A DNA stretch of 64,000 nucleotides. It comes from Candidatus Moraniibacteriota bacterium (GTDB lineage: Bacteria > Patescibacteriota > Minisyncoccia > Moranbacterales > UBA1568). Below the pieces are notes generated by a model that did not search any database, had not been told where the DNA came from, and worked only from the letters and a program-made list of their open reading frames with translations. This document shows, piece after piece, positions 14,868 through 64,000 of this stretch (its first letter is position 1; every line of letters starts with the position of its first letter). The translations under genes were made by a program, and so were the position numbers. The stretch is taken from positions 134 through 64,133 of the forward strand of contig JBPOIB010000007.1 of assembly GCA_052034935.1 (NCBI GenBank). The letters are read 5' to 3'.

Positions 14868-14959
14868 TGGTGCGGAGAGGGAGGGATTCGAACCCTCGAG
14901 GGTGATTAAACCCCGCCACGTTAGCAGTGTGGTGCCTTAAGCCGCTCGGCCACCTCTCC
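14868..14959 (-). tRNA. tRNA-Ser (anticodon GCU), class II with long variable arm
   Basis: Minus-strand GGAGAGGTGGCCGAGCGGCTTAAGGCACCACACTGCTAACGTGG...GAGGGTTCGAATCCCTCCCTCTCCG(CACCA). Anticodon loop CTGCTAA, T-loop TTCGAAT, 7-bp acceptor stem. The 3' tail is GCACCA, so the exact 3' end is ambiguous (14868 or 14873). Confidence 0.85.
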
Positions 14960-49575: not shown

Positions 49576-49674
49576 ACGAAACGTTTGCTATTTGGTTACG
49601 TGAATAAAAAACAATCAATCTGCGGGAGCTGCTTTATCAGATTCAGAGAGAGAAAAAAAACGGAAAAGCTCACT

Positions 49675-50142
49675 TTAGGCAAAGTGAGCGAAGGCTTTGT
49701 TGGCTTCGGCCATCCGATGGGTCTCGTCACGCTTCTTCATGGCGGATCCAATCTTGTTCGAGGCGTCGATGAGCTCGTCAGCGAGCTTGTTGGCCATGGA
49801 CTTGCCTTTGCGGTTGCGGCAGCTGTCGCGGATCCAACGCATCGCGAGGACCTGGCGGCGCTCGCCGGAAACCGGGACCGGGACCTGGTAGTTCGCTCCA
49901 CCGACGCGGCGGCTTTTCAGTTGGAGAAGAGGGGAAACGTTCTTGATGGCTTGTTCAAAAGTATTGAGACCGGCTTTCTTGGTCCGCTCGGCGATGATAT
50001 CAAAGGCATCGTAGATGATACGCTCGGCGATGCTCTTTTTGCCACCCCACATAATCATCCCGACGAAATGCCCAACCAAAGGATTGCCGAAACGAGCGTC
50101 CGGCTTCCATGTCTTATCAAATTGTCGCTTTCTCCGTGGCAT
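49675..50142 (-). CDS. rpsG: 30S ribosomal protein S7
   Basis: 155 aa. Confidence 0.9.
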   Translation of the reverse strand: MPRRKRQFDKTWKPDARFGNPLVGHFVGMIMWGGKKSIAERIIYDAFDIIAERTKKAGLNTFEQAIKNVSPLLQLKSRRVGGANYQVPVPVSGERRQVLAMRWIRDSCRNRKGKSMANKLADELIDASNKIGSAMKKRDETHRMAEANKAFAHFA

Positions 50143-50163
50143 AAATTTCGTTCAGATTGGCAC

Positions 50164-50583
50164 TTAGTCTTTCTTCTTCTCCTTCTTCGCACCGTACTTC
50201 GAGCGGCTCTGCTTTCTCGTTGTCACGCCGGCAGCATCGAAGATACCGCGAACGACGTGATAGCGTACACCTGGAAGGTCCTTCACGCGGCCGCCCCGAA
50301 TCATGACGATCGAGTGCTCCTGGAGATTGTGGCCTTCGCCCGGGATGTAGGCCGTCACTTCCATGCCGTTGGTGAGCCGGACACGAGCAATCTTGCGCAT
50401 CGCGGAGTTCGGTTTCTTTGGGGTCATGGTCGTCACCTTGAGACAGACTCCCCGCTTGTAGGGACTATCAGTCTTGGTAATGCGATTCTTGACCGTATTG
50501 ATAACAAAAGTCATCGCCGGAGACTTGGATTTCTTCTTGGCGATCTTGCGCGGGCGCTTGATAAGCTGATTGATGGTGGACAT
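50164..50583 (-). CDS. rpsL: 30S ribosomal protein S12 (carries an insertion of about 10 aa after SKSPA)
   Basis: [24 protein letters not shown] motifs; 139 aa versus the typical 124. Confidence 0.9.
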
Positions 50584-50648
50584 TCGTGTCGAATTCGTTA
50601 GCTTAGGCTTGAGACAAACAAAAAAAGACGTGTTGTCGATGTGAAACG

Positions 50649-50677
50649 AGTGTACCGGATAGGAAACTGCTTGTCAA
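50649..50677 (-). promoter_or_regulatory. Candidate sigma-70 promoter of the rpsL-rpsG-fusA operon
   Basis: Minus-strand TTGACA (50672-50677), 17-nt spacer, TACACT (50649-50654). Confidence 0.45.
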
Positions 50678-50691
50678 CTGGATACTCGAAT

Positions 50692-51411
50692 CTACAGAAT
50701 CAACCCGAAGAAAAGGTTCAGAAAAAACGACATAAAGGCGCTAATCGGGGCTGGGAAAAGAAAAATGATAAAAAGGAGGACGAAGAAGCCATACTGCTCG
50801 AGCTGGAGCTGTGTCCGCTCGCTCACTGGGAAGAAGGTGAAGAGGATTTTCGAACCATCCAAGGGTGGGATCGGCAGCAGATTGAAGCAGCCCAGGACGA
50901 CATTCCAGAAAACCACAAAGAGGAGGAGACCAAAAAAGATACTCGGGAGAGAGCCCGCCATGAGTGCCGCCAGATCACCGAAGCGCTCAAGGAAGCCGCT
51001 TCCACCGCCGATGACCTTGGAGAAGCTCCGGTACATCTCGAGTTTCTCGCCCGTCGCAAGAGGAACGACCATAGCGAGTACAGCAGCTACAAAAGCCATA
51101 ATAAAATTTGTCGCCGGACCAGCAAGCGCTACTTGGAGCGGCCCCCATTTCTGATCCCGGAGATTGGTCGGATTGTACGGTACCGGCTTGGCATAGCCGA
51201 AAGCAAAACCGGTCGGGATGAGGAGGAGCGGAATGAGAATGGAACCAATTGGATCGATATGGCTCACCGGATTCAACGTAATTCGCCCGGCAAATTTTGC
51301 CGTGATGTCGCCGAGCCAAAGTGCCACAACCCCATGCGACACTTCATGGATGATCACCGAGTAGAGCAGCGTGGCGAAATAAAACGCCAAGAGAACAATT
51401 TCATTAGACAT
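50692..51411 (-). CDS. Site-2 protease family (M50) zinc metalloprotease
   Basis: HEVSHG (HExxH) in the first TM; LDG motif; multi-TM. Confidence 0.8.
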   Translation of the reverse strand: MSNEIVLLAFYFATLLYSVIIHEVSHGVVALWLGDITAKFAGRITLNPVSHIDPIGSILIPLLLIPTGFAFGYAKPVPYNPTNLRDQKWGPLQVALAGPATNFIMAFVAAVLAMVVPLATGEKLEMYRSFSKVIGGGSGFLERFGDLAALMAGSLPSIFFGLLLFVVFWNVVLGCFNLLPIPPLDGSKILFTFFPVSERTQLQLEQYGFFVLLFIIFLFPAPISAFMSFFLNLFFGLIL

Positions 51412-51775
51412 AGAAAGGTTTTGAGAGGAATACCGTAAGTATCGGAGCGGAAAATAAAATCCACTCCCCTTACCAAGATACCATATCCGACAGGGTCCTT
51501 CTCCACTCTTGCCGAAATCGATTAAGCATGATATCCTCGGTAGGCATCTAAACAGCCTTTGAAGTTTTTGCTATGAGCCGTGTCTGCCAACTTTCCGGCC
51601 GGGGAACCCAAACCGGTAATAAAATCAGCCATTCCAAGCGCCATACCCGCCGCACATTCGCGATTAATCTCCAGACGAAGCGCATCGGCGGCATGAAATT
51701 CCGGCTTTCGACTCGTGCCATCCGGACTTTGGCGAAGTCTGCCGCCTAGACCTTGGCTTCATTGCTGAATCAAAT

Positions 51776-51806
51776 AAAAACGAGGCTGTGGAGCCTCGTT
51801 TTTATT
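51776..51806. terminator. Bidirectional intrinsic terminator
   Basis: AAAAA-CGAGGCT-GTGG-AGCCTCG-TTTTTAT. Confidence 0.6.
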
Positions 51807-51893
51807 ATCCCCCTAAAAAAGATGGCCGGCATGGACAAAGTGCCTAAAATATGCAATTATTTAGCGTCCAATCAAGGACACAAGGAGACAGAG

Positions 51894-52031
51894 ATGCCCT
51901 TTCCTCCCGCACCGTTCACCCTGATGATGTACAAAGTGAACGAGTGGCTGTTCGCCGCCATCGTTCTGTCAACGATGTTCCCCTCGCTCTGCGTCACCAG
52001 CCTCTCGACTGCCCCACTGGGGATCTGGTAG
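51894..52031 (+). CDS. Candidate 45-aa hydrophobic micro-protein
   Basis: Strong SD AAGGAGACAGAG before the ATG at 51894; followed by a terminator at 52051-52092. MPFPPAPFTLMMYKVNEWLFAAIVLSTMFPSLCVTSLSTAPLGIW. Confidence 0.3.
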   Translation: MPFPPAPFTLMMYKVNEWLFAAIVLSTMFPSLCVTSLSTAPLGIW

Positions 52032-52050
52032 CGAGCGAAAGACACCTCGG

Positions 52051-52092
52051 CCCACCGGCAGGAAACCTGCTTCGGTGGGCTTTCTGCTTTTT
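52051..52092 (+). terminator. Intrinsic terminator (hairpin CCCACCG...CGGTGGG followed by CTTTCTGCTTTTT); also lies just 3' of dsbB
   Basis: 7-bp GC stem with a 15-nt loop, then a T-run; an A-run precedes it on the other strand. Confidence 0.55.
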
Positions 52093-52131
52093 ATACAAAG
52101 CCAATGTTCTGGCAGCATTTTCCACCAATGA

Positions 52132-52641
52132 TTAGCTTGGGTCGGACGGAGTAGTTTTGCTTCTTGTATAAATCCAAAGGCCGGCCAGAGTCAGTCCAGT
52201 GAAGGCGATGAGTGACCAGTCAGCGATTGAAAGTCCGAGCATAGTCCAATCGATAATCGCACAGTTACCAGTACCGCCAAGTGCTGCGAGAAAGTCATCA
52301 AGCATGGAACCGAAGGAAACCGCACAGCCGCTTGATTCCACTATTTTCTGGAAATGCTGGAGATAGACGTGGCGAGCCGCGATCATCCAACCAACAAATG
52401 CAAAGAGAGAAACGGCCAGGCCCGCTGCCCGGATGGTAAACTGGCGCCACCAGCCCATATAACCAGTCAGTGCCGAAAGTCCCACAAAGGCATAAAAGAA
52501 ACGTTGTGCGATACAAAGCGGACACGGAACGAGGTTTACCATATGGACCAGATACATGGCAAAGAGAAGCAGACTCGCACAATAGATCGCGATAGCAAGG
52601 AGGAGATTTTTCGGCTCGAACAGAAGACGAAGGTAGTGCAT
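52132..52641 (-). CDS. dsbB: Disulfide bond formation protein B
   Basis: CPLC in the first periplasmic loop; second Cys pair later; 4 TM helices. Confidence 0.8.
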   Translation of the reverse strand: MHYLRLLFEPKNLLLAIAIYCASLLLFAMYLVHMVNLVPCPLCIAQRFFYAFVGLSALTGYMGWWRQFTIRAAGLAVSLFAFVGWMIAARHVYLQHFQKIVESSGCAVSFGSMLDDFLAALGGTGNCAIIDWTMLGLSIADWSLIAFTGLTLAGLWIYTRSKTTPSDPS

Positions 52642-52781
52642 ACGTTATGACAAGAAATTCCCTTTTCAGTATAGCAGCCGTACCCGAAAACGTATTCCCA
52701 CCCACTGTAACCCCCTCTCTCTTTTAGTGAACTGCTGTCGGTTGTTATGATGCGTGATGCGCCACACAGTCATTGTCTTCG

Positions 52782-53024
52782 CTACTTCCTAAGAGAAATA
52801 TCCATATCTGTGATTTTCTGCTCGAGAAGCGGCATAACACCATCAAGCATCCGATTCCAAAGAGCGCTATTCGTCGCTTGAAGAACAACATCCAAAACTC
52901 GCCCGGCCGCGACAACGCCAATCTTCTCACCGCGTTCTTTTTCGAAATATCCGATTATCTCACCTACTGCATGACGGCGTTCCACATCGGAAAGCACATC
53001 CCAGTCGCGCTTCACTCCGGACAT
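52782..53024 (-). CDS. DUF2164-family protein
   Basis: 80 aa, YoaH-like. Confidence 0.5.
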   Translation of the reverse strand: MSGVKRDWDVLSDVERRHAVGEIIGYFEKERGEKIGVVAAGRVLDVVLQATNSALWNRMLDGVMPLLEQKITDMDISLRK

Positions 53025-53034
53025 ATCTGTGTGC

Positions 53035-53685
53035 CTATTTTGGCATCTTCAGCACATCAACGACACGGCCATTCATGACGAAATTATCCTCTGACGTGAG
53101 AAAAATCGGCTGATGCCTTTTATCAGTCGACTCGGGTAGGAGGGCGATCATCTTGCCGCCCTGAGAGCGGTATGTTTTCACCGTTGCGAGCCCGTCGATC
53201 ACGACGAGTACCCGATCACCATTCTTGTACTCTTTCACCTCGGCATCAACCAGGACGAAATCGCCATTCTGGATGAGCTTACCGTTCACCTTGGCACGAT
53301 TCATCGATGTGCCGGAGATCTGGACAGCGAAGACATTATGATCCTTAACGAGCCGTTTCGAGACGCGCAGGTACCCTTCGACGTACTGATCAGCAAACAT
53401 GGTTGCCGCTCCAGCACTCGCGGCTCCGAAAACCGGAATCTCGACAAAACTATCAGAATTCACACCCTTGAGGAGAATCCCGCGGTCCTCACTCGTCCGT
53501 TCGATGTAGCCTTTGTCCTCGAGCGCATTCAGGTAGAGGAAAAAGCTTCGAAGGCTTTTCAGGTTCAGTCCGAGCTTACTACTCTCCTCTTTGATTTCAC
53601 GTACCGTCGGCATTTCACCGTGGTCGGTAAAGAACTGTTTTATGGCCTGGAGGACAATGCGCTGTTTTTGAGTCAGGATTTCCAT
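53035..53685 (-). CDS. lexA: LexA repressor (S24 peptidase)
   Basis: N-terminal wHTH; Ala-Gly cleavage site region; Ser nucleophile GTSM; catalytic Lys. Confidence 0.9.
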   Translation of the reverse strand: MEILTQKQRIVLQAIKQFFTDHGEMPTVREIKEESSKLGLNLKSLRSFFLYLNALEDKGYIERTSEDRGILLKGVNSDSFVEIPVFGAASAGAATMFADQYVEGYLRVSKRLVKDHNVFAVQISGTSMNRAKVNGKLIQNGDFVLVDAEVKEYKNGDRVLVVIDGLATVKTYRSQGGKMIALLPESTDKRHQPIFLTSEDNFVMNGRVVDVLKMPK

Positions 53686-53756
53686 AGTGCTTATGTGTTT
53701 ACTTCACTTACACTATGAATTATATAATCTTCCGAAATCCTGTCAAACGACCATTT

Positions 53757-54620
53757 TCAAAAGAGTTCTCCCCGCCAGTCTGGACTCACTATCGTTTGAC
53801 CGTCAGATCGAAAAACGAGGTAACTCGAACGAAACGAGCGGGCCAATGCCGGATAACATTCTTCGATAGCGAGGAACAGCCCCGAGGTCATGCAGTCCGC
53901 GGACCAGGCATCAGGCGCGAGCGCAGCGCAGCCCACAACCAATTCGATAACTTTCCGCGTTCCAGGGTCAACTAGGTGATGCCACTTCCCCCACCGCCGC
54001 CGAAAACTATCCGACACGGCAAGACCCTGTTGTGACAGTTCGACGACACCTGCCGCAATATCAGGCTTTCCAGGATATTCAATAGCTACGCGCCAGGGTC
54101 GGCCATCCGCTTTGGACGTTCCGAACATATCGCCGCCCCCATCCACGATAAAATATTCATAACCTACCCGGCGGACAATGTCCGCAATCCGATCGATGCA
54201 GTAACCCTTGCCAATACCACCGAGATCAAAGGCCGCCGGACCATCGAGCACTAACGCGCCGTCGACGAGCGACCAGGCCGGGAGCTGCTCTCCGTATTGA
54301 ATCGAGACCAACTTTGACTGACCGCCATAGCCTACTCCTTCGAGAACACCTCCAACGACTGGATCATACACGCCGCCAGTGAGTCCGCGGAGGAGCGCCG
54401 CCCGTTCAAGAAGCCGGAAAAATTCAGGGGAAATCGGATAAGTTCCAGCAGCAACCTCTCGAAAAGCATTTGTCTCTGAGCCGGGCAAAAAACGCGAAAA
54501 ACGGGACTCAAAGTCCCGCGCATAACTGACCACCTGCTCACGGAGACTCTCCGGGATTGACTCGGTGTCAACCACAACTGACCAGGCCGTCCCCAGCCCT
54601 TGGAAACCAATCGTCTGCAT
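53757..54620 (-). CDS. apbE: FAD:protein FMN transferase (ApbE family), no signal peptide detected
   Basis: 287 aa with ApbE core motifs (DLGGIGKGY, DGGGD); begins MQTIGFQGLGTAWSV without a lipoprotein signal. Confidence 0.75.
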   Translation of the reverse strand: MQTIGFQGLGTAWSVVVDTESIPESLREQVVSYARDFESRFSRFLPGSETNAFREVAAGTYPISPEFFRLLERAALLRGLTGGVYDPVVGGVLEGVGYGGQSKLVSIQYGEQLPAWSLVDGALVLDGPAAFDLGGIGKGYCIDRIADIVRRVGYEYFIVDGGGDMFGTSKADGRPWRVAIEYPGKPDIAAGVVELSQQGLAVSDSFRRRWGKWHHLVDPGTRKVIELVVGCAALAPDAWSADCMTSGLFLAIEECYPALARSFRSSYLVFRSDGQTIVSPDWRGELF

Positions 54621-54631
54621 GTATCTATTCG

Positions 54632-55090
54632 CTAAATCTGCTTCTGGAGATCTTTGATTGCGTCATTGAACGCCCATGTTGTCAGTGAGGACTGGCCAAC
54701 CTTGTCGATAGCGGTCAGTTCGGACAGCTTCTTGCCCTTGAGGATAACATTCACCTCGCTATTAAAATCTTTTTTCTTCTCGGGCACTTCATTCGTCTCA
54801 GCATCCAGTGTCTGAATCTGCTCGATCATCCCCGCCGCGTCAAGGGTCACTACAAATCGGAGATGGTCTACCTTATCACCTGGCACCTCATAACTCACCG
54901 TCGCACTCACTTCGCGCGGTTTATCCATGACGGCAACCGGCGCCGGAACAGTTTCCGGCTTCATCGAACGAAAGATGCTGGCCGCCTGACGATAATAAAT
55001 CGCTACGGTAACAACGAGAACGAAAGCAATAAGTACAAGACTCTTGGGTATTTTTTGCATACTCTTTTTATTTTTTTTCGACACCACCAT
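54632..55090 (-). CDS. Membrane-anchored FMN-binding-domain-like protein (probable ApbE substrate)
   Basis: N-in signal anchor; C-terminal KGKKLSELTAIDKVGQSSLTTWAFNDAIKDL; 11-nt gap to apbE. Confidence 0.45.
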   Translation of the reverse strand: MVVSKKNKKSMQKIPKSLVLIAFVLVVTVAIYYRQAASIFRSMKPETVPAPVAVMDKPREVSATVSYEVPGDKVDHLRFVVTLDAAGMIEQIQTLDAETNEVPEKKKDFNSEVNVILKGKKLSELTAIDKVGQSSLTTWAFNDAIKDLQKQI

Positions 55091-55188
55091 AATACACCCG
55101 GGCTAAGCTGGAATCAAACGACTTATTTGAGATTCAAAGAAAAAAGTCCTTACCGCCAAGTGGCGACAAGGACCCTGAGAAAAACCGC

Positions 55189-55551
55189 TCAAGCGATGCG
55201 ACGATTGATTGCGCGGCGGATATGCCGCCTGACTCGGCCGAGCGAAAGAGGCCTCCCCGGTTCGAAACGAATGAATGGGAAGCGCCAGCGGCCGACACCA
55301 GGACCGATAAGGAGTGTTCCTTTCGGCGGGGCATCGACACCGACCTGGAAATCGATCTGAATCGTGAGCCGCCAGAGCGCGCCGGCCGGGTGCACGATGT
55401 TCATCTCATCGTCCCGAACCTCGTCGAGGAATCCTGGAATCCACGGGTGATGCATCACAAGATGCTCATACACCGCATGGATCGAATCCGGAGTTCGCTC
55501 GATCAAAACACCATTTTGGAAACGGCGCCAGACAACCAGCGGCAGCATCAT
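55189..55551 (-). CDS. Hypothetical protein (GC-rich)
   Basis: 120 aa ORF, no recognisable motif. Confidence 0.35.
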   Translation of the reverse strand: MMLPLVVWRRFQNGVLIERTPDSIHAVYEHLVMHHPWIPGFLDEVRDDEMNIVHPAGALWRLTIQIDFQVGVDAPPKGTLLIGPGVGRWRFPFIRFEPGRPLSLGRVRRHIRRAINRRIA

Positions 55552-55757
55552 GGGTTACCCTCCTTGAAGCGAGTCAACAGTTGGGAAAAAACGAAGACGG
55601 TCAGCTTAGCGGAAAGAATGCACACAGTCAATGCTGTCCCACTCCTTGTAGATACAAAGACTAGCGGAAACTCCCGTATTGCCGTCTCTCTTCCCTCATG
55701 CTATGCTAGGCGCTCAAGTTTTTTCCCAATTCCTATAACCTTCCCGGAGGAAATCGC

Positions 55758-55952
55758 ATGCTCCCCGTCTCTCGTGAAACACTGTTCGTGACGCTCATCT
55801 GCGCTCTCGCAATCGGATCCGCGATGATTCCGTTCCTGCTTTCTCCAGACAGCACCGGGTTCTGGCACATCGATACCAGAGCACAGTCATCGAGCGAGCA
55901 GTCTGCGCCAGCGGCTGAGCCGCCACATCAAAACGCCAGCAGCCCTCAGTGA
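55758..55952 (+). CDS. Hypothetical small membrane protein
   Basis: SD GGAGG 7 nt upstream of the ATG; one TM helix. Confidence 0.4.
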   Translation: MLPVSRETLFVTLICALAIGSAMIPFLLSPDSTGFWHIDTRAQSSSEQSAPAAEPPHQNASSPQ

Positions 55953-56051
55953 ACGTCGCTGCGTCAAACGCGCCGCCCGCAATGTCAGGCGGCCTTTTTC
56001 TTTTCTCGCAAGACAAAACCGGCTCCTTAGAGCCGGCTGAATTAGCTCTTA

Positions 56052-56225
56052 TTATTTTTTGGTCTGGACTATCTGGGCCCTCGACTGAGCCTCCGAATCA
56101 TACATACTCGCCTCAGCATAGTCGGCCTGGATGCCCTGGCTTTTGTTGACGACTAACTGTCCCATGAGAAAAGAAACGGAAACGACGAGGGTGAGTGCAA
56201 GAAGAGTAGGGATTTGATGACGCAT
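56052..56225 (-). CDS. 57-aa secreted peptide (signal peptide, Gln/Ala-rich mature part)
   Basis: MRHQIPTLLALTLVVSVSFLMG...; followed at 56020-56045 by a hairpin and T-run terminator on the minus strand; below the ORF-track size cutoff. Confidence 0.4.
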   Translation of the reverse strand: MRHQIPTLLALTLVVSVSFLMGQLVVNKSQGIQADYAEASMYDSEAQSRAQIVQTKK

Positions 56226-56310
56226 AGATTTTTATATTAATATTCTTCCCTTACTCTAGCATGAGACCGCTGCTCGAATCTATCATTCTGTCCATGCTAT
56301 CATTTGTTAT

Positions 56311-56994
56311 ATGACCAATCCATCCGAAATGCCACCCGTGCAGCCGCCGAAACCAGTCGCGGAGACCCCTCGGCACGAATTACCCGTGACAGAGCCACAA
56401 ATACCTGATGCGCCAACTCACCCGGAAAAACCCCTTGATCCGCCGCAGCTGAGTATTAAAGAACGCGTTTCAGCTGACACCCTGACACCCGAACAGGCAG
56501 AACAAGCCGCGAGAATGTTCGAACCCATTCGGGATCCAGTATTGAACGCCGCCCGGAGACAAGAAGCCAGAGAGCGCCAACGTCTCCATCCCGACCAGGA
56601 TGGCCCTGTCGTTCCCTCCACGGCGGCTGAAATGGCCGAGTATGAACGACGCTACGATAGCGGATGGCAAGACCCTGCTGATTCGCAAAGCCGCGAAGCA
56701 GTCAATCAGAAGGAACGCGAGGATTTAGAAAATCTAAGAAGGGCGGTTGAACTCATGGATGAGTTTGAGCTTGCCTATCCCCTGCAAGAATTGCACGCGA
56801 TTACTCATATTTCGGTTCCTGAGCTCATGGCGCATCCAATCCGGAAGCCAGCCAACATTGCCCTCGTTCATATCCGAAAAGCGATAGACGCTACTGGATC
56901 AAAGAAAATACCAGAGATTGAGGAACGCTACCTCCGTCTTTCTCGAGCAGTCGGAAAATATAACTCTCTCAGTAAATCAGTCGAGCACGATTAG
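56311..56994 (+). CDS. Hypothetical protein with Pro-rich N-terminus
   Basis: 227 aa. Confidence 0.4.
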   Translation: MTNPSEMPPVQPPKPVAETPRHELPVTEPQIPDAPTHPEKPLDPPQLSIKERVSADTLTPEQAEQAARMFEPIRDPVLNAARRQEARERQRLHPDQDGPVVPSTAAEMAEYERRYDSGWQDPADSQSREAVNQKEREDLENLRRAVELMDEFELAYPLQELHAITHISVPELMAHPIRKPANIALVHIRKAIDATGSKKIPEIEERYLRLSRAVGKYNSLSKSVEHD

Positions 56995-57039
56995 CGACTT
57001 CCTATCAGATAAAGAAAAAAGAGGGGGGCCGCATCACGT

Positions 57040-57070
57040 GCGGCTCCCCTTTGGAAACACGGTGAGTCCT
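57040..57070. terminator. Bidirectional terminator (GGGGGCCGCA-TCACG-TGCGGCTCCCC)
   Basis: 10-bp GC stem; a T-run on the minus strand (TCTTTTTTCTTT) and AAAAAAGAG/TTTGG on the plus strand. Confidence 0.6.
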
Positions 57071-57083
57071 GACTGACTCGGCG

Positions 57084-57350
57084 CTACCGGCAACCTTCGG
57101 CCGGCTGGGCAGATTCGGACTCTCCCATCTCCTCGACGAGGAGGTAAGCGGTCTGCCGACTCCAGGGTTCTTCGAAAGAGACCACCCGCTTCTCGCAGAT
57201 GGCGCCGTTCGGCATCTGCACGTCCGCCACGCTGCACGAGACTTCGATCTCGGCACCGGCTCGGATCTCGAAGCGGGATGCCTCGAGGTATCCTGTATCC
57301 GGGTTGTGCTTGAAGACAAGCACGTTCTTCGTGAGTTTAATGGTCGTCAT
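57084..57350 (-). CDS. Hypothetical protein (88 aa)
   Basis: SD AAGGAGA 8 nt upstream of the ATG at 57350; the track ORF extends to 57413. Confidence 0.4.
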   Translation of the reverse strand: MTTIKLTKNVLVFKHNPDTGYLEASRFEIRAGAEIEVSCSVADVQMPNGAICEKRVVSFEEPWSRQTAYLLVEEMGESESAQPAEGCR

Positions 57351-57509
57351 CGACACTTCTCCTTCGGTTGGGGTGGTGGAAAATGAGAAAGGAACTTCCG
57401 CCGAGTATCGCAAATCCGGCCGCCTGAGTCAAATGAAAACCGCCGAGAATCACTCCGGTGCGGTTTTTGGTTTTTTCATCCTGCCGTCAGATGCACTCCC
57501 TGACTGTCA

Positions 57510-58112
57510 TTAAAGAATCTTCCTCGGCTGCAAAAGGACGAAAAAGAAAGAGATAAGTGCAAAGGCAGCCATGATGATGAAGACCGGCACGAAACCAAAA
57601 TAGGTAGCAATAAATCCGCCGGCTACCACTCCTACCGCCGAGATCAAGCTATGAAAAATACTCCATGAGGAATAATCCCTTACTGTTTCTCCGTGATCCA
57701 GATGCCTTGCGAAAAGGGCATTGAATGACGGGCTGCCGAGTGCCTCCCCCAATCCGAGAAGTACCTGGACGAAGAGGAGCATCGGCATGTTGGCAACGAA
57801 GATATACGCGAGCCAGGCGATGGCTCGGACGAGGAATCCCGCCATGAGGAGGTATTCTTTCTCTCTCATCCGATCGCCGAACTGGGCAATCAAGAGAGTA
57901 AACAGCGTAGAGGCGATCAGAAAAGCAGCCGAAGAGGCGCTGATGGCCACCGGAGTCGAAACGATTCTCTCAACATACACCGCATATAGCGGACCGAGCA
58001 GGCTCGCACCGAAAATAAAAATCCCGTTCGCTTGAAAAAGCACTTTGAGTCCTTTGTTTCTCATGTTTCTCATTGTACATGAGAAGTCTCCCACCGACCC
58101 AAAAATATACAT
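57510..58112 (-). CDS. Half-size MFS-like membrane protein (6 TM), possibly a truncated transporter
   Basis: 200 aa; resembles the C-terminal half of an MFS transporter. Confidence 0.4.
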   Translation of the reverse strand: MYIFGSVGDFSCTMRNMRNKGLKVLFQANGIFIFGASLLGPLYAVYVERIVSTPVAISASSAAFLIASTLFTLLIAQFGDRMREKEYLLMAGFLVRAIAWLAYIFVANMPMLLFVQVLLGLGEALGSPSFNALFARHLDHGETVRDYSSWSIFHSLISAVGVVAGGFIATYFGFVPVFIIMAAFALISFFFVLLQPRKIL

Positions 58113-58239
58113 TCACCCCTTCAAAGGATTGACAGGATGCTTTTTTTGCTGTTCAATGCAAGGTCGGTCTCGAAGCAAGCTACCCGGGGCCGATAGGTCC
58201 CTTTGTCCCTTCCCACAACGCTTCGAGGAGTTCCTCACC

Positions 58240-58980
58240 ATGTTCCGACACATCATCCCCGCCCTCACCCTGCTCGTCGGGATTGCCTTCGCCAGCCCCG
58301 GCGTCGCCCAGTCCCTCAACCGGGTCTGCAGCGGCGCCCTGCCGGACGTCCCCATACCGCCTGACGCGCTCCACATGGTCGAGGTGATCCAACCCGAGTA
58401 CCAGCCGCCCCAAAGGATGGCCGACCTCGGCTTCGATCACATCACGCCGACCATCAATGTGGTCACAACGTACCCGTGCAATCGCGGCCTCGGCTCGATG
58501 GTCGAGATCGAGGAGATGCGTCTCGTCCGCTACGACCACCTGACGAAGGTGCACATCACCGAGCAGACGATTCGCTACGGCACCGCCGCCACCCTCGTTG
58601 GCGCGATGTGGTACCGCGAACCGGTCTGGTTCCAGAGCGGCCAGCCGAATCCGCAGCCGTGGGTGACGTGGATCCAGAGCGGCAACTTCGCCGTCAGCGT
58701 CCAAGCGACCCCGCTCGGCGTCTACCACTGGTGGGGCCATCCCCGGCTGAAGATGAAGCCCGGCTACGCCTACTTCGTGGAAGCGAAAATCCGGGTCATC
58801 GGTGACACCCGCGTCCAGCTCGGGCTCGACTACTGGCGCGGCGCCACGACCATCTACAACGGCTACTCGGCCGGCTGCGTCAATTCGAACAATTGCGAAG
58901 CCTACCAAAGCCACTGGATCGGTCCGACGAATGGCCAGTTCGTCACCGTCATCACCCCGATGACGCTCTACACCCCCTGA
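58240..58980 (+). CDS. Hypothetical secreted protein, GC-rich (about 62%)
   Basis: Signal peptide MFRHIIPALTLLVGIAFASPGVAQS; SD GAGGAG. The track ORF starts at 58045. Confidence 0.5.
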   Translation: MFRHIIPALTLLVGIAFASPGVAQSLNRVCSGALPDVPIPPDALHMVEVIQPEYQPPQRMADLGFDHITPTINVVTTYPCNRGLGSMVEIEEMRLVRYDHLTKVHITEQTIRYGTAATLVGAMWYREPVWFQSGQPNPQPWVTWIQSGNFAVSVQATPLGVYHWWGHPRLKMKPGYAYFVEAKIRVIGDTRVQLGLDYWRGATTIYNGYSAGCVNSNNCEAYQSHWIGPTNGQFVTVITPMTLYTP

Positions 58981-58997
58981 CCGCCACGCTTCGCCAC

Positions 58998-59050
58998 GCG
59001 AAGCAACAGTAAAGCCGCCCTCTGCACCAGCACGGCGGCTTTCAATTTTT
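58998..59050 (+). repeat. Hairpin repeat R1 (subfamily A: GCTTCGC-CAC-GCGAAGC ... GCCGCC-loop-GGCGGC-TTTCAATTTTT); terminator of 58240-58980
   Basis: See finding; shares a 50+ nt consensus with R6. Confidence 0.75.
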
Positions 59051-59118
59051 CCTTTCCTTCTTAGTCAATCACAAACATCCACATTCCCAACATCTCAAAG
59101 AGTCTCTATACTACCCTG

Positions 59119-60078
59119 ATGAAGATACTCTTTGGGCTCATTATCCTCCTACTCCTCGCCGCTTTCACTTTAGTTTTTCCGCAGACCAAAAAAGAATCCC
59201 AAGAATCCATAGTGACCAAAGAACCCCCAGCACGTGAAGAAGAAAATATCACGGATGCCATCGCCGAAAAAAAGCCCCTTTCAATCTCCCTTTCTTCTCC
59301 CTCGGCCATCCAAGGAGAACCAGTACTCGTGACGGCAGAAGGAATTACTGACCGCTCACTCGTCGAGTCCTTCACCTTCGACGGGAAATCAATTCCGGTT
59401 TTCGAACATGAAGGAAAATTAGCTGCCTTTCTCAGCATCGACCTGCACAAAAAGCCCAGCTCCTACGAAGTGACGCTCCTTTCGAAAGACGGCGAAAAAG
59501 CGACCGTCAGTCTCGAAGTCAAAGAGCGCATTCTCCCCGTATCGGATTTTGACATTCCCGAAAGCTTTGGTGGCAACACTGTGGCCGGCGAACAAAAACT
59601 CACGAGCAATTTAGAATCTGACACCAAGACCTTGAACGCTGTCACAGCGCTCATCAGTCCCGAAAAGCTTTGGACGGAAGCCTTTCGCCCTCCGCTCGAC
59701 GGTAACCCGGTTGTCACTGACACCTATGGCTATAGCCGACAAACTGGCGCCACCAATATCAGTCACAATGGTACCGACTTCCGGGCCGCCGTCGGCACTC
59801 CGGTGTACGCCATGAATGCCGGCCAAGTGGCATTTGCCGGAACGTTCCGGAATTATGGCCACACCGTTATCATCGATCACGGCCAGGGACTGATGACCAT
59901 GTACATGCATCTCTCCGAACTCAAAGTCGAAACTGGCACGCCCGTAAAAAAGGCCGCTCTGATCGCGCTCTCCGGCAATACCGGCTACTCGCTCGGCCCC
60001 CACCTCCACCTCTCCGTCCGGATTTATGGTTACTCCCTAGATCCCATCAAATTCCTCGAACTCATGGGCCCGAAATAA
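59119..60078 (+). CDS. M23-family (LytM-like) peptidoglycan metalloendopeptidase, secreted
   Basis: HxxxD and HxH (GPHLHLSV) motifs; signal peptide. Confidence 0.8.
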   Translation: MKILFGLIILLLLAAFTLVFPQTKKESQESIVTKEPPAREEENITDAIAEKKPLSISLSSPSAIQGEPVLVTAEGITDRSLVESFTFDGKSIPVFEHEGKLAAFLSIDLHKKPSSYEVTLLSKDGEKATVSLEVKERILPVSDFDIPESFGGNTVAGEQKLTSNLESDTKTLNAVTALISPEKLWTEAFRPPLDGNPVVTDTYGYSRQTGATNISHNGTDFRAAVGTPVYAMNAGQVAFAGTFRNYGHTVIIDHGQGLMTMYMHLSELKVETGTPVKKAALIALSGNTGYSLGPHLHLSVRIYGYSLDPIKFLELMGPK

Positions 60079-60103
60079 ACCAGCGAGTACAAAGCAGACA
60101 GCA

Positions 60104-60140
60104 CCGCCAAAGGATACTCTCCGAGGCGGCTTTCGTTTTT
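60104..60140 (+). repeat. Hairpin repeat R2 (subfamily B: CCGCC-AAGGATACTCTCCGAG-GCGGC-TTTCGTTTTT); terminator of the M23 gene
   Basis: See finding. Confidence 0.7.
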
Positions 60141-60199
60141 CAAGCTATCATGGCTGAAATGAATCACATCTCTCTCCCGCGAACACAGCCCAAAAAGAG

Positions 60200-60532
60200 C
60201 TATCGAAGCTTCACTGCCGTACCGTAGGCGAGGATTTCAGCAGCACCCGTCATGATCTGCGATGTCGTGAATCTGACTGACACGACAGCATCAGCTCCCA
60301 TGTCCTTGGCTTGCTGCTGCATCCGTTGCAGTGCTTCTTCACGGGCATCGGTCATTGCCTTCACGTACCCCTTGATTTCTCCGCCGACGAGACTCTTTAG
60401 TCCGGCGCCGATATCACTCCCGATATGCCGTGCACGGATAGTATTGCCCATCACCATTCCGAGTGTCTCAGTGATCTCTTTCCCTGTGATAACATCAGTC
60501 GTTGTGACAAACATAGTACTAAGTGTCTTCAT
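60200..60532 (-). CDS. YbjQ/UPF0145-family protein
   Basis: MFVTTTDVITGKEI...AVKL matches the UPF0145 core; start at 60532 or 60514 (the track ORF runs to 60628). Confidence 0.7.
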   Translation of the reverse strand: MKTLSTMFVTTTDVITGKEITETLGMVMGNTIRARHIGSDIGAGLKSLVGGEIKGYVKAMTDAREEALQRMQQQAKDMGADAVVSVRFTTSQIMTGAAEILAYGTAVKLR

Positions 60533-60586
60533 AAATTTACAGTTCCAGTATATCAAACGACCCCACTCGGCATCGGCCCCTACCAC

Positions 60587-60620
60587 TCGCGAAGCAAAAG
60601 TAAGGCGGCTTTCAATTTTT
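60587..60620 (+). repeat. Hairpin repeat R3 (subfamily A, internally deleted copy)
   Basis: CGCGAAGCAAAAGTAA-GGCGGCTTTCAATTTTT. Confidence 0.6.
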
Positions 60621-60629
60621 CTTTTCACA

Positions 60630-61320
60630 CAATAAAACCAGCCTTTCGGCTGGCTTTGAAAAGTATCAAAACTGTTGAGAGAGGAGAAGCGGAATCGGTT
60701 GAAACCGCTTCTCCCTGTATAGGTCGACCGGACGAACTCGCCTGAAGCGAAATGGACGAACGGTCTTCCTCCCGAGTTTGCAGCAGATGGGCTTGGCCGA
60801 GTGTCGAATGGGCGCAGGCCGGACCCTCCCGACGAGCGAGCACAGTTCCAAGTGAACTCACTTATCGGCTCCGCCAGTATCCATCTGTTTTTAGCACCCC
60901 AAGGGGCGGCATAGGCAGTCCGACTGCCCTACTCTCTCCTCCAATGCGCGTGGTCGCCAAACGCGGACCGTGGAGATCTAAACGCGGGTAAGGAACATGG
61001 TGAGAAAAATTTCTCTCAACAACTTTGATCGTAATTGGAAATGAATCAATACTCTTGAGAGAGAAGGAGTCGAGTACGCGGAAACGACTCCCTCTCAAGT
61101 AGTAGCCGAGGCACCCATCAAGAGTTGCCCCCATCTGTGCGAGAAAGGAACCCACCTTTTGATCCGTGCTGATCAGGCACTTACCCCAAGATAGTTTTCC
61201 AGCCCCAGAAATCCCCCGGCTTGAACGTTGAGAATTGCTTCTCTCAAGAATATTGATGTGCAAAATAACTGAAAAGCAGTATGGCAAAGAACAGCCGTTC
61301 CGTCAATCCTCAGATACAAA
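60630..61320 (+). ncRNA. ORF-free segment of about 0.7 kb with related long hairpins; candidate structured noncoding RNA(s), strand tentative
   Basis: No credible ORF. H1 (60674-60720) is a 10-bp GC stem; H2 (61054-61099) is an approximately 15-bp stem; both begin CT(N)TTGAGAGAG and have GAAA-ending loops. Bounded by R3 and R4. Confidence 0.3.
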
Positions 61321-61323
61321 AAA

Positions 61324-61360
61324 GCCGCCAAGGATCACTCCGAGGCGGCTTTCAATTTTC
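61324..61360 (+). repeat. Hairpin repeat R4 (subfamily B)
   Basis: GCCGCC-AAGGATCACTCCGAG-GCGGC-TTTCAATTTTC. Confidence 0.7.
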
Positions 61361-61398
61361 CCGTGTCATAATGAACAATTCTTTTCTGAATCTGAAAG

Positions 61399-62091
61399 CT
61401 AACGTGTATATGGATTAACCCCGGTGCAATCAGGATTATCTTTCCATGACCCCGGCCAATTTTTCCAATATAGATATTCTTCTTCATCTACAGCGACTAC
61501 CTTTGCAATTTTTGCTTCATTAGATTCACCCAAACCATGATACTTTGATGCGCTATAGTTCGAGATTATTATCGTTGCTTTCCCCGAAACATTGCATACA
61601 TCTCCCTCCACATTAGATTGTGGGACTTTTGTTTTTTGACTAAGTAACGCTACCGAATCATCGTAGAAATCAAGTACTTTATCTCCATTGTTCCAATCTT
61701 GGCCGGCTAGATTAGGAAATAAATATTCCTGCTCACGATTAATCCGAAACCAACCATCTGCACTACCTCTCCAATAGGTACCTGAAACCGTTACATAGCC
61801 TTGATAGTAGTAATTGTTCTCATCCTCTCCCACTTTCACAAACGGTTTAGTTATAGGGGTAGTTTCTATTAGTCCGTCTTCTTTCTCGGACCCTATAGTA
61901 GTGGCCTCAGTAATTAGCCCCGCTGACTGAACGGGCTCAGACCGAGGAATCGATTGAACTTGCGTAGTATCACCTTTAATCAACGACACTTGCGAGGGAT
62001 ATGATTTCGGTACACTAAAAAAATTTACTGCTGCAAAAAGTGAGAGAACAACTACCACTGCACAAAAAAGGTAGATTTTATGAAAATTCAT
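61399..62091 (-). CDS. Hypothetical secreted protein in an AT-rich (about 40% GC) islet
   Basis: Signal peptide MNFHKIYLFCAVVVVLSLFAAVNF; 230 aa; Trp/Tyr/Asn-rich. Confidence 0.5.
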   Translation of the reverse strand: MNFHKIYLFCAVVVVLSLFAAVNFFSVPKSYPSQVSLIKGDTTQVQSIPRSEPVQSAGLITEATTIGSEKEDGLIETTPITKPFVKVGEDENNYYYQGYVTVSGTYWRGSADGWFRINREQEYLFPNLAGQDWNNGDKVLDFYDDSVALLSQKTKVPQSNVEGDVCNVSGKATIIISNYSASKYHGLGESNEAKIAKVVAVDEEEYLYWKNWPGSWKDNPDCTGVNPYTR

Positions 62092-62139
62092 ATTTGATTT
62101 TATTTGCCTTCATTCTACAGGAACGCCTATTAAACAAAA

Positions 62140-62178
62140 GCTGCCAAGGATCACTCCGAGGCGGCTTTCAATTTTTTC
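62140..62178 (+). repeat. Hairpin repeat R5 (subfamily B)
   Basis: GCTGCC-AAGGATCACTCCGAG-GCGGC-TTTCAATTTTTT. Confidence 0.7.
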
Positions 62179-62246
62179 TTTTAAAAAAGAATAGGGTCTG
62201 CCACGCGGTACGTGACAAACCCTTTCGTAAACCAGGGCGAGCCACC

Positions 62247-62591
62247 CTAGCCATCGAGTGCCCCAATCGCCTGATCGATATCCGCTTGCCAGTATTCGGG
62301 AGCGAAGTCCTTGAGCCAGACTTGCTGGACGCATGCTTGAGCAAATATCCGGACCACATCGGCCTTGTCGCCGTCTTGATAGCGGAACCCCGGACACTCG
62401 AGGACCGTGATCGAGTAGCCTTCGGCCCGCTCGAGATTCTCCGCCAGAGTGCCCTCGCCGAACTTCATCGGCGGATCCTCTTGGTACTCGTCGTCAGGCC
62501 AGAGCCCGCTCGCATCATATTCCTCGAGCTCCTCGCGTGAGTGGTGAAGGATTTCCGGACGCCCGCAGTGGGCACAGTTGAAACGGAACAT
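62247..62591 (-). CDS. Hypothetical Cys-containing acidic protein (CxxC at N-terminus)
   Basis: MFRFNCAHCGRPE...; 114 aa. Confidence 0.4.
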   Translation of the reverse strand: MFRFNCAHCGRPEILHHSREELEEYDASGLWPDDEYQEDPPMKFGEGTLAENLERAEGYSITVLECPGFRYQDGDKADVVRIFAQACVQQVWLKDFAPEYWQADIDQAIGALDG

Positions 62592-62667
62592 GGTCGTTCT
62601 CCTTGGGCAAAGAAATACAATGAACTCGGGACCACTCTAGCGCGGAGATAGTCCGCCGTCAAACAAA

Positions 62668-62705
62668 AACCGCTGATAATCACTCCGAGGCGGCCTTCGA
62701 TTTTT
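62668..62705 (+). repeat. Hairpin repeat R7 (subfamily B, diverged)
   Basis: ACCGC-TGATAATCACTCCGAG-GCGGC-CTTCGATTTTT. Confidence 0.6.
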
Positions 62706-62811
62706 CCTATACTTGAGACTCAAATCTGACTATTGCAAATAGCCATATTTTATGCTATAATTTACAGTTAGTAGTTTTTTCCTAACCCGCAACCCCTCAC
62801 CGGAGAAACCG

Positions 62812-63141
62812 ATGAAATACCGACTGACGATTTCCATCATCTTCTCGCTGTGCCTGCTGGCAACCAACGGGGCGTTGTTCCTCTTCCTCTACTCCATCGA
62901 TGGCGACATCGGGAGATGGGCGTACGAGCGGCGCGCGGTCGAACGCATGCAGATGATGCAGGAATTCCACCGCACCCACCCACGTCCCGCATCAATCGGA
63001 TCTGCCCCCGCATACGGAGAAGGTTGGTTCATCATCGAACCAAAACTCGTGGACAAGCAGTGGAACGGCCCCGGACTCCTCCCCGGAGACCAGCCGGAAC
63101 CCTTGCCACCGTCCTGGGAACCACCGCCGCCCATCAAGTGA
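62812..63141 (+). CDS. Hypothetical membrane/secreted protein with Pro-rich C-terminus
   Basis: N-terminal TM; 109 aa; SD GGAG. Confidence 0.4.
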   Translation: MKYRLTISIIFSLCLLATNGALFLFLYSIDGDIGRWAYERRAVERMQMMQEFHRTHPRPASIGSAPAYGEGWFIIEPKLVDKQWNGPGLLPGDQPEPLPPSWEPPPPIK

Positions 63142-63154
63142 GGACAAGTCTTCG

Positions 63155-63212
63155 CCAAGCGAAGCAAAAGCAAAGCCGCCCTCTGCACCAAGCAAGGCGG
63201 CTTTCAATTTTA
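63155..63212 (+). repeat. Hairpin repeat R6 (subfamily A, full length); terminator of 62812-63141
   Basis: CTTCGCCAAGCGAAGCAAAAGCAAAGCCGCCCTCTGCACCAAGCAAGGCGGCTTTCAATTTT. Confidence 0.75.
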
Positions 63213-63227
63213 CAAAACTCAAGTCAG

Positions 63228-63905
63228 CTATTGATTTGATTGGCCATCGAGCGGTGCGGTCTCGCTCGTATTTGAAACTACACTATAAACGCCAAACGCG
63301 ACTGGACCCGCTGAACTCGACCCGGTTGGATCCTGCACTACAAACCGATCTTCATCAAGCCACCATAGCGGCCTTCCGTCCAATTCCTTGATGAGCTTCT
63401 TACTTTGTGTATCCCAAACCCTCGTTTTCTGAATCGATGTGCCCTTCGTATAGGCGATATATCTTCCCTGGGGACTGATCTTTGGTCCCTGAACATCGGC
63501 CCAGGTACTGGCTTCAACTACCGTACCGACGAGCGACGGGAACTCAGCATGGATAATGCTCATATCGGCCGTTGGATTTTGTGAGTAGCTAAATACCCAT
63601 TGTTTGCCATCACGAGTAAAAGAGTATTGGCCCTGACCAAACTGGATTGGCTTTGGAAATGTGATGTAGTCGGCTTTGAATTTCTCTATGTCAAAAATCA
63701 CCATTCTTTCCCTTGGTCCGTTCGCCCCTTCGACATTTTCAGATGCAACAGCCAAGACATGGCTCGCATCCACAAAAGCAGTTATTCCCTCAAGCGGAAA
63801 CAGATGAGTATCAATACCGGTTTCAATATCGAAGACATGGAAGCCCGGTACGTCCCCTGAATGAAACTGTTCCTGTTTATCCCAGGGGAGAATTTCTATA
63901 CCCAT
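63228..63905 (-). CDS. WD40-like beta-propeller (TolB/PD40-like) repeat protein
   Basis: PD40-like repeats (SPQGRYIAYT, FTRDGKQWVFS); 225 aa. Confidence 0.5.
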   Translation of the reverse strand: MGIEILPWDKQEQFHSGDVPGFHVFDIETGIDTHLFPLEGITAFVDASHVLAVASENVEGANGPRERMVIFDIEKFKADYITFPKPIQFGQGQYSFTRDGKQWVFSYSQNPTADMSIIHAEFPSLVGTVVEASTWADVQGPKISPQGRYIAYTKGTSIQKTRVWDTQSKKLIKELDGRPLWWLDEDRFVVQDPTGSSSAGPVAFGVYSVVSNTSETAPLDGQSNQ

Positions 63906-64000
63906 ACCCTCGATTACCTTCCGAGAACTCAGTGAGTCATTTTTGATGTAGTAAATAAAACGCTTACTATCAGGGGACCAGTCGGTAATGTACTCGACCG

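Follow-up and report, generated by a model that had tools for sequence, protein, structure and literature searches.

Introduction

What is encoded by a hairpin-rich segment of about 0.7 kb in which no open reading frame (ORF) reads as a plausible protein gene? The segment occupies positions 60630-61320 of a 64,000-nucleotide stretch of contig JBPOIB010000007.1, from a Candidatus Moraniibacteriota bacterium, which we term the window. A first-pass annotation made from the sequence of the window offered three readings: one or more structured non-coding RNAs (ncRNAs), a degenerate element of the miniature inverted-repeat transposable element (MITE) type, or a degraded gene. The first of these is supported here by covariation among ten homologous units; a degraded gene is rejected, and a MITE-like element finds no support as a DNA transposon.

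Here we define two tandem units within the segment, document their homologues in related Moranbacteria and the association of most of these with 16S ribosomal RNA (rRNA) genes, and describe a conserved helical core surrounding a rapidly diverging domain. We conclude with high confidence that the minus strand of the segment encodes two members of a new family of structured RNA genes. The family is new as an RNA family and narrow as sampled, being confined to one Moranbacteria subclade.

Results

Two tandem units closed by their own ends

All four hairpins reported in the first-pass annotation were located in the sequence: H1, with arms GGAGAAGCGG (60683-60692) and CCGCTTCTCC (60705-60714); H2, at 61054-61099 as reported; a third with arms TTGAGA (61228-61233) and TCTCTCAAG (61240-61248); and a small hairpin CCAGCC-TTTC-GGCTGG, which lies at 60638-60653, displaced by two nucleotides from the position originally assigned. 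H1 and H2 were correctly described, on the plus strand, as having in common a CT(N)TTGAGAGAG prefix and loops that end in GAAA. Overlooked in that description was the dominant feature of the segment, two pairs of 18-nucleotide long-range inverted repeats, 60665-60682 with 61012-61029 and 61045-61062 with 61240-61257, flanking 329 and 177 base pairs (bp), respectively. These pairs resolve the segment into two tandem units, each closed by a helix of its own ends: unit A (60665-61029; 365 nucleotides, read on the minus strand from 61029 to 60665) and unit B (61045-61257; 213 nucleotides, read from 61257 to 61045), separated by a 15-nucleotide minus-strand spacer (61030-61044). H1 and H2 are the same helix, present once in each unit.

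The 19-nucleotide end motif ATCAAWACTSTTGAGAGAG occurs four times in the window, always within the segment, against an expectation of 0.06. Units A and B have about 50 nucleotides in common at one end and about 30 at the other, with interiors lacking similarity, and their end helices differ at two positions, at each of which both arms have changed (G-C to C-G, and A-U to U-A). The G+C content inside the segment is 0.58-0.60, compared with approximately 0.40 in the neighbouring gene. On either strand the region folds far more stably than shuffled controls (plus, z = -5.9; minus, z = -8.1), with energies of -253.3 and -293.6 kcal/mol, respectively; taken singly, unit A gave z = -4.3 and the minimum free energy (MFE) fold of unit B gave z = -5.2. 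One Logan contig identical to the window over 49408-61356 was found; a look-up with ybjQ returned this contig alone, and the 225-residue neighbour has no recorded match.

Homologous units in related Moranbacteria and their 16S rRNA context

The M23 peptidase encoded nearby assigns the window to Candidatus Moranbacteria, very small uncultured members of the Candidate Phyla Radiation. Relatives were collected by scanning genomes with the M23 peptidase, scanning metagenomes with a degenerate end motif, and looking up homologues of the peptidase. Eight further units were found in seven contigs of related Moranbacteria, giving ten in all with the window pair. Six of these, in five contigs, lie on the 16S strand in the 3' trailer of 16S rRNA genes: L003 13495-13712, L050 606-857, L063 119-450, L078 15082-15411, and a tandem pair in L080 (4107-4349 and 4367-4587) with a 17-nucleotide spacer. 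The other two, L078 8609-8901, upstream of an M23 gene, and L079 1-266, cut by the contig end, are stand-alone, as is the window pair; neither rRNA nor any 16S trailer or tail sequence occurs in the 64-kb window.

In the trailer, the 3' strand of the 16S processing stem is followed after about 45 nucleotides by the unit or units, then by a conserved tail of some 120 nucleotides and an intrinsic terminator. In L003, where the processing stem pairs 13757-13778 with 15656-15677, the unit is outside the stem, and no promoter- or terminator-like site was seen between 16S and unit, from which it follows that the unit belongs to the 16S transcript. The conserved tail (L003 13380-13494, L078 14960-15081, L080 3985-4106, and also in L050 and L063) contains GUGAAGAGG and a AAGGAAUUUCCUU-type palindrome, has no Rfam match, and is present as well in L004 (13885-14040), a contig with 16S, trailer and terminator that has no unit.

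Within the subclade, in which M23 proteins share 68% identity or more with that of the window, every contig that extends far enough contains at least one unit. Among Moranbacteria with M23 proteins 53-61% identical (L002, L004, L081-L085 and L088), neither motif search nor covariance model revealed a unit; an 18-bit match in L085 fell inside a Fic gene and was taken as noise. Contigs of three closer relatives (L077, L086 and L087) end before the informative region.

At the 16S-trailer site, flanking sequences are 92-97% identical upstream and 76-95% (mostly above 90%) downstream, with unalignable interiors. We considered cassette swapping at this site and do not propose it, because the hosts of trailer units are different species, with M23 proteins 67-87% identical, and ordinary divergence of unconstrained sequence explains the pattern equally well. 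The metagenome scan with the end motif returned 70 loci, 68 of them chance matches lacking a partner arm and two true. A called 90-residue "protein" ending in ...FERKLFPRIQLLLSQEY (P0121, from a Logan contig of 2537 nucleotides) is a translated L050-type unit from another sample, so that at least one more member of the family exists.

A conserved helical core with covariation

Single-sequence folds of the ten cores yield the same helices. P1, of 16-18 bp, is formed between the unit ends and is nearly invariant in sequence, to a degree comparable with the flanking pre-rRNA sequences; P1a is a small hairpin that re-uses the GAGAG of P1; P2 carries a fast-evolving domain of 74-202 nucleotides; P3, a hairpin with an AGG/CCU extension, follows directly after P2; and P4, with 12 bp and a 12-nucleotide loop, is separated from P3 by a four-nucleotide junction (AUUC) and abuts P1 without an unpaired base. 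The end helix with abutting P4 is present in both window units, and P2 with the directly following AGG...CCU P3 is present in unit A, in seven other complete units and in the cut L079 unit. Unit B has a single long-range helix and no separate P3.

Because automatic MAFFT alignment misaligned the middle of both whole units and trimmed cores, the core alignment was segmented by hand, padded with N so that MAFFT retained it column for column, with a placeholder standing in for the variable domain and unit B excluded from P2 and P3. In this alignment 93.6% of 423 cells are standard pairs (96.5% in P1 and 95.4% in P4 across units), compared with 41-50% after displacement of the 3' partners by one to three columns. 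The first-pass annotation had proposed a search for covariation in homologous regions of relatives, and compensatory changes were found: both sides have changed in 20 of the 47 core pairs (P1, 2 of 16; P2, 4 of 8; P3 extension, 1 of 3; P3, 8 of 8; P4, 5 of 12), a covariation score matched by none of 500 shuffles. Application of RNAalifold to a model-made alignment of six units again recovered P1 through P4, with 17 compensatory pairs.

A covariance model built from the core alignment scored units at 41-100 bits and nothing else credibly, across the window and 16 Moranbacteria loci. Unit B was recovered at 81.7 bits (model R1; E = 3e-19); beyond its two copies, the 64-kb window gave no match to covariance model or motif. 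In an alternative register, the CUCUC after P1 may pair with the GAGAG found where P4 starts, and this possible helix likewise has compensatory differences, being UCUCG/CGAGA in L080, UUCUCAA/UUGAGAG in unit B and UCUCUCG/CGGGAGA in L003.

The variable domains have no k-mer common to all (AGAUGG occurs in five of nine, which we find unconvincing) and no antisense match elsewhere in the sequences of the collected loci. Comparison of P1 arms, junctions and P4 loops with leader, 16S and trailer gave no complementarity beyond that of shuffled controls.

Anatomy of the window units

The elements of the core can be placed on the minus strand of the window as follows. Unit B begins with the 5' strand of P1, AUCAAUAUUCUUGAGA (61242-61257), seen in the inverted repeat, the core alignment and the MFE fold, and continues with the small alternative hairpin P1a (61226-61241), the third hairpin of the first-pass annotation. 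A P2-like helix predicted by MFE folding pairs AGCCGGGG (61214-61221) with CCUCGGCU (61104-61111) and holds the variable domain between its two strands; its homology to the P2 of other units being uncertain, it was kept out of the covariation count. P4 (61061-61096; formerly H2) has a 12-bp stem and the 12-nucleotide loop UUUCCGCGUACU, and the 3' strand of P1, UCUCAAGAGUAUUGAU (61045-61060), completes the unit, as marked by inverted repeat and core alignment.

Unit A and the L063 unit are orthologues, with 72% identity over the full length, and define an A-type whose consensus fold has an energy of -110.8 kcal/mol, compared with -90.4 on the other strand. Its P1 pairs AUCAAAGUUGUUGAGA (61014-61029) with UCUCAACAGUUUUGAU (60665-60680), again from inverted repeat and core alignment. 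P2 pairs CCCGCGUU (60981-60988) with AACUCGGG (60771-60778), according to folds and core alignment, and encloses a P2-distal variable domain of 202 nucleotides with several hairpins (60779-60980) that is conserved in the L063 orthologue only and shows compensatory changes of its own between window and L063. P3 (60721-60770), delineated by folds and covariation, comprises the AGG/CCU extension, an internal loop, a GACCG/CGGUC stem and an inner stem; P4 (60681-60716; formerly H1) bears the 12-nucleotide loop UUUCAACCGAUU.

Strand and candidate transcription signals

The RNA strand is the minus strand of the window. This assignment follows from the 16S genes and terminators of the relatives, the stronger folds of the minus strand, an excess of G-U pairs, and the pairing that would be lost on the other strand. 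Core helices contain 27 G-U cells and four A-C cells, a ratio that fixes the RNA strand; at position 8 of P1 a U-G pair, which would be an A-C mismatch on the opposite strand, is retained in seven of nine units; and pairing would drop from 93.6% to 88.2% were the other strand the RNA. The first-pass annotation had envisaged a plus-strand transcript ended by R4, a hairpin repeat at 61315-61375. R4 instead reads as the terminator hairpin, followed by UUUUUUGUAU, of the upstream minus-strand gene (61399-62091), and marks the upstream boundary of the RNA locus.

Between that boundary and unit B lies a candidate sigma-70-like promoter on the minus strand (61278-61306), TG-extended and matching the consensus as TTGACG-17 nucleotides-CATACT, whose -10 element ends 20 nucleotides upstream of the unit. 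The stand-alone unit of L079 has a similar TTGACG-17-TACTAT sequence 16 nucleotides upstream. Two of the three stand-alone loci share, on the strand of the RNA, a promoter-like TTGACG-17-(C/T)A..(C/A)T site 16-20 nucleotides before the end helix. Eleven nucleotides after the unit pair begins a putative intrinsic terminator on the minus strand (60630-60653), CCAGCC-GAAA-GGCUGG followed by UUUUAUUG, which is the small hairpin of the first-pass annotation; the minus-strand MFE fold places a 10-bp hairpin at its 3' end on this site, which was overlooked by a simple scan since an upstream A-run pairs with the U-run. At the L078 copy (8609-8901) a terminator-like hairpin alone was seen, downstream.

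Absence of matches to known RNA families

At the gathering threshold, a search of the whole window against Rfam 15 returned only a transfer RNA (tRNA) at 14873-14959. Relaxed to E <= 10, the search of the region gave eight chance-level matches (11-21.5 bits, against cut-offs of 45-93), so that none of the families proposed in the first-pass annotation (GOLLD, ROOL, HEARO, raiA, ribozymes and introns) is represented. Homologous units in L080 and L078 likewise lacked Rfam matches, and ARAGORN predicted no tRNA or transfer-messenger RNA (tmRNA) gene in 60000-62000.

RNase P RNA, a single-copy gene with regions CR-I to CR-V in a canonical helix order, was rejected: Rfam gives no match, genomes contain two to three divergent paralogues, and the GGAGGAA-like motif of the units is near the 3' end inside P2/P3 instead of following a 5' P3. 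On architecture, multiple divergent paralogues, an incorrect helix order, a lack of conserved motifs and the absence of an adjacent reverse transcriptase led us to reject RNase P, tmRNA, signal recognition particle RNA, 6S RNA, group I and II introns and retrons. No match to the region was found by blastn in phage and plasmid collections, and a scan of viral contigs for the end motif gave one chance match and no true unit.

The surrounding neighbourhood

R4 belongs to a repeat family represented at 59024-59056, 60119-60141, 60594-60626, 61315-61375, 62131-62191, 62660-62720 and 63186-63218, built on the hairpin GCCGCC-N14-GGCGGC. Their T-runs on both sides and their occurrence after almost every gene of the stretch suggest that these repeats are probably bidirectional terminators. 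In three full copies the plus-strand loop is AAGGATCACTCCGA, nearly the 3' end of 16S (GGAUCACCUCC); on the minus strand, which is that of the flanking genes, the loop is GGAGUGAUCC and nearly complements the anti-Shine-Dalgarno end of 16S. A 41-nucleotide direct repeat (CTTCGCCAMGCGAAGCAA...AAAGCCGCCCTCTGCACCA) occurs at 58989-59029 and 63150-63190, these copies being 93% identical, and more weakly at 60580-60620; every copy adjoins a member of this family.

Downstream of the M23 gene (60079-64000), the genes differ in every relative compared (L003, L077, L078 and L080): ybjQ in the window, NUDIX in L077 (M23 96% identical), a formyl-transferase/Fic set in L078, and SduA in L080. The region is thus a hypervariable neighbourhood punctuated by R repeats. 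Two further observations concern the collected loci: a tRNA match in L080 (3400-3513, minus strand) spans 114 nucleotides, and so includes either a lengthy insertion or an extra arm resembling an intron, and the 16S gene of L003 has an AT-rich insertion of about 80 nucleotides (~14300-14380), of a kind reported for rRNA genes of the Candidate Phyla Radiation (CPR) (PMC11270868).

Discussion

Two genes of a structured RNA family, with proposed release by RNase III

By a modest balance of probability we favour a single account of the segment: two tandem paralogous genes of an undescribed structured ncRNA family of one Moranbacteria subclade, transcribed from the minus strand and probably excised through cleavage of P1 by RNase III. 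A promoter belonging to the window pair (~61306-61278) would drive a single transcript of about 640 nucleotides, extending from ~61270 to ~60630. P1 stacked on P4 would present a duplex of about 28 bp, to be cut by RNase III as is pre-16S at the adjacent stem. The cutting of stems flanking rRNAs by this enzyme is established (PMC6582327), and a duplex of about 28 bp beside the 16S processing stem would be a classic substrate; judged by helix length and the neighbouring 16S stem, excision at P1 seems evenly poised for and against. Excised units may then persist as stable RNAs with clamped ends.

Within such RNAs the conserved core would be the part read by a partner, and the conservation of P1 in sequence, not in pairing alone, points to a sequence-specific protein as reader. 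The P2-distal domain may confer identity on each paralogue, and P1a may serve as a folding aid, keeping the 5' strand of P1 occupied while the 3' strand, which lies 200-350 nucleotides further downstream, is still to be transcribed. The presence of one copy per 16S in most genomes hints at a role tied to ribosome production or translation, which is a guess. More tentatively still, and as less likely than not, we entertain a hitherto unrecognised, trans-acting, modular class of CPR RNA, in which an invariant clamp core (P1/P4 and the five-way junction) is read by a dedicated partner, a fast-evolving domain is specific to each paralogue, and one copy per 16S is supplied from the rRNA operon; its role could lie in ribosome biogenesis or translation, or in genetic conflict, an option raised by the fast-evolving domain and the turnover of paralogues.

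Several considerations weigh against the account we favour. Hand curation with the structure in view, especially in P3, inflates the pairing statistics, and relatedness among as few as ten units from eight contigs can do likewise. Unit B is without a clear P3, and the GAGAG/CUCUC tracts permit two or three alternative registers (P1a, P1b and the base of P4), so that the junction as drawn is provisional. The promoter and terminator are consensus matches only. The RNA is linked to the ribosome by co-transcription with 16S alone and to no protein partner; the existence of stand-alone copies means that linkage to 16S is not required, and L004, the closest sampled relative without a unit, shows that the unit is dispensable for 16S maturation generally.

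Alternative explanations

The alternative that survives best, though we think it unlikely, is a highly structured, cis-acting module of the 3' external transcribed spacer, which would block 3'-to-5' exonucleases or guide or time pre-16S processing, would lack a function of its own after release, and would have been copied to other sites, there to stabilise or insulate neighbouring transcripts in the manner of REP, ERIC or Correia repeats. Such a module would suit the six of ten units that lie, in five contigs, between processing stem and terminator of the 16S trailer, the conservation of P1 and P4 at about the level of the flanking processing sequences, and the want of a motif common to all variable domains. 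It accords less well with the stand-alone copies (window, L079, and L078 8609-8901), which lie apart from coding genes. Of these, the window pair is equipped with both a promoter-like site and a terminator of its own, the L079 copy a promoter-like site and the L078 copy a terminator-like hairpin only, signals that fit independent genes better than a role in cis. Moreover, a five-helix junction in which every helix covaries is more than an exonuclease block requires, the A-type variable domain keeps its helices through compensatory changes, and L004 matures 16S in the absence of any unit.

A MITE-like non-autonomous DNA element, bounded by terminal inverted repeats of 16-18 bp and spread by transposition or recombination, with RNA structure that is incidental or self-serving, is distinctly improbable. 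All units have inverted ends of 16-18 nucleotides, the termini are conserved and the interiors unalignable, tandem copies exist in the window and L080, the sites are of three kinds (16S trailer, upstream of the L078 M23 gene, and beside ybjQ in the window), and units are absent from L004 and more distant Moranbacteria, all as such an element might have it. Against this, target-site duplications were found at none of the nine complete units, and all nine (including six of six in 16S trailers) are oriented with local transcription. The 'inverted repeat' itself keeps a U-G in seven of nine units and contributes to the 27:4 ratio of G-U to A-C, strand-specific pairs that denote selection on RNA and not on the ends of duplex DNA; the internal helices P2, P3 and P4 covary as well. 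Copy number is low, at two in 64 kb and two true matches in the whole metagenome collection, and we found no phage, plasmid or viral-contig relative.

That the units are invertible switches, promoter-bearing segments between inverted repeats that are flipped by a site-specific recombinase, is a very remote prospect. The geometry, with 18-bp inverted repeats around 177 and 329 bp beside a gene for a secreted-looking protein, would suit a switch, but nine complete units share one orientation relative to flanks and 16S, the candidate promoter is outside the repeats, no recombinase domain was present in the neighbouring ORFs tested, and neither strand-specific G-U pairs nor covarying internal helices would be expected of DNA that inverts. 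Finally, a decayed protein-coding gene can practically be dismissed: although ORFs of 141, 79 and 78 residues overlap the segment and one another, the first-pass annotation rightly judged that none is a plausible gene, as they have no Pfam match, break into other frames in the orthologous L063 unit through indels of 17, 9, 3 and 2 nucleotides, and show neither a conserved frame nor protein homologues, the 141-residue ORF moreover crossing the boundary of two independent units and the single called ORF retrieved with a translated-unit profile from 5.8 billion proteins being itself another unit.

Relation to known systems

Compared with described systems, the RNA genes we propose appear by analogy nearest in working to rRNA intervening sequences (IVSs) and to the spacer tRNAs and 5S of rRNA operons, these being RNAs released from the rRNA precursor by way of flanking helices, and nearest in design to Y RNAs. 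The units nonetheless fail defining features of IVSs, spacer tRNA/5S, Y RNAs and MITEs alike. With the IVSs of 23S and 16S they share the character of extra RNA in an rRNA transcription unit, a long basal helix, sporadic occurrence, and a conserved base with a variable tip; as modelled, the stack of P1 (16-18 bp) and P4 (12 bp) would also be of the right size for RNase III, and short insertions of RNase III type have been reported in CPR 23S genes (PMC11270868). IVSs, however, are simple extended hairpins of about 100 nucleotides inside mature rRNA helices, whereas our units, of 213-365 nucleotides, lie 3' of a complete 16S match (model positions 1-1533) and outside the processing stem, have a five-helix covarying core, and occur as stand-alone genes besides.

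Spacer and distal tRNAs and 5S resemble the units as stable RNAs co-transcribed at one copy per rRNA and cut from the precursor, and the spot directly 3' of 16S is the usual position of a tRNA. Even the helix order (end helix, small hairpin, long arm, extra arm, stacked hairpin) recalls an oversized cloverleaf, in topology only. The units differ in having no tRNA, tmRNA or 5S match, an end helix of 16-18 bp instead of seven, and no T-loop or CCA features.

Y RNAs of the YrlA type are modular, with a stem of 5' and 3' ends that binds protein and a variable effector module, and are often tandem paralogues. The units are alike in their conserved end stem, variable module and tandem paralogues, but have no Rfam match and differ in size and branching; no Ro/Rsr gene was seen in their neighbourhood.

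Correia, ERIC and REP elements offer another parallel, in terminal inverted repeats, transcript hairpins sensitive to RNase III, multiple copies, and presence that varies among relatives. Those elements are short, near-identical, numerous and found in either orientation, with target duplications in the case of Correia, in contrast to units that are few, deeply diverged inside, co-oriented with transcription and free of duplications, with a branched covarying core. Lastly, raiA, ROOL, GOLLD, OLE and HEARO are likewise large, strongly structured and supported by covariation, with functions undescribed or recently emerging; no model of these matches even at E <= 10, and architecture, 16S-trailer context and host clade all differ.

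Significance

Large RNA folds supported by covariation and lacking a known family are, to our knowledge, rare. Such folds have historically led to new biochemistry, among them riboswitches, ribozymes, OLE, raiA, ROOL, GOLLD and the guide RNAs of IscB and TnpB. We are aware of almost nothing on non-coding RNA in the CPR. With a sampled range of one Moranbacteria subclade and about nine contigs, the general importance of the family is limited until a wider search is made. Within that range it is built into the 16S rRNA transcript, which is expressed more strongly than any other unit of the cell. Were its members trans-acting partners of the ribosome or of ribosome assembly, they would be an addition, peculiar to one lineage, to machinery that is among the most conserved in biology; were they instead selfish, RNA-level passengers of the rRNA operon, they would represent a new kind of element.

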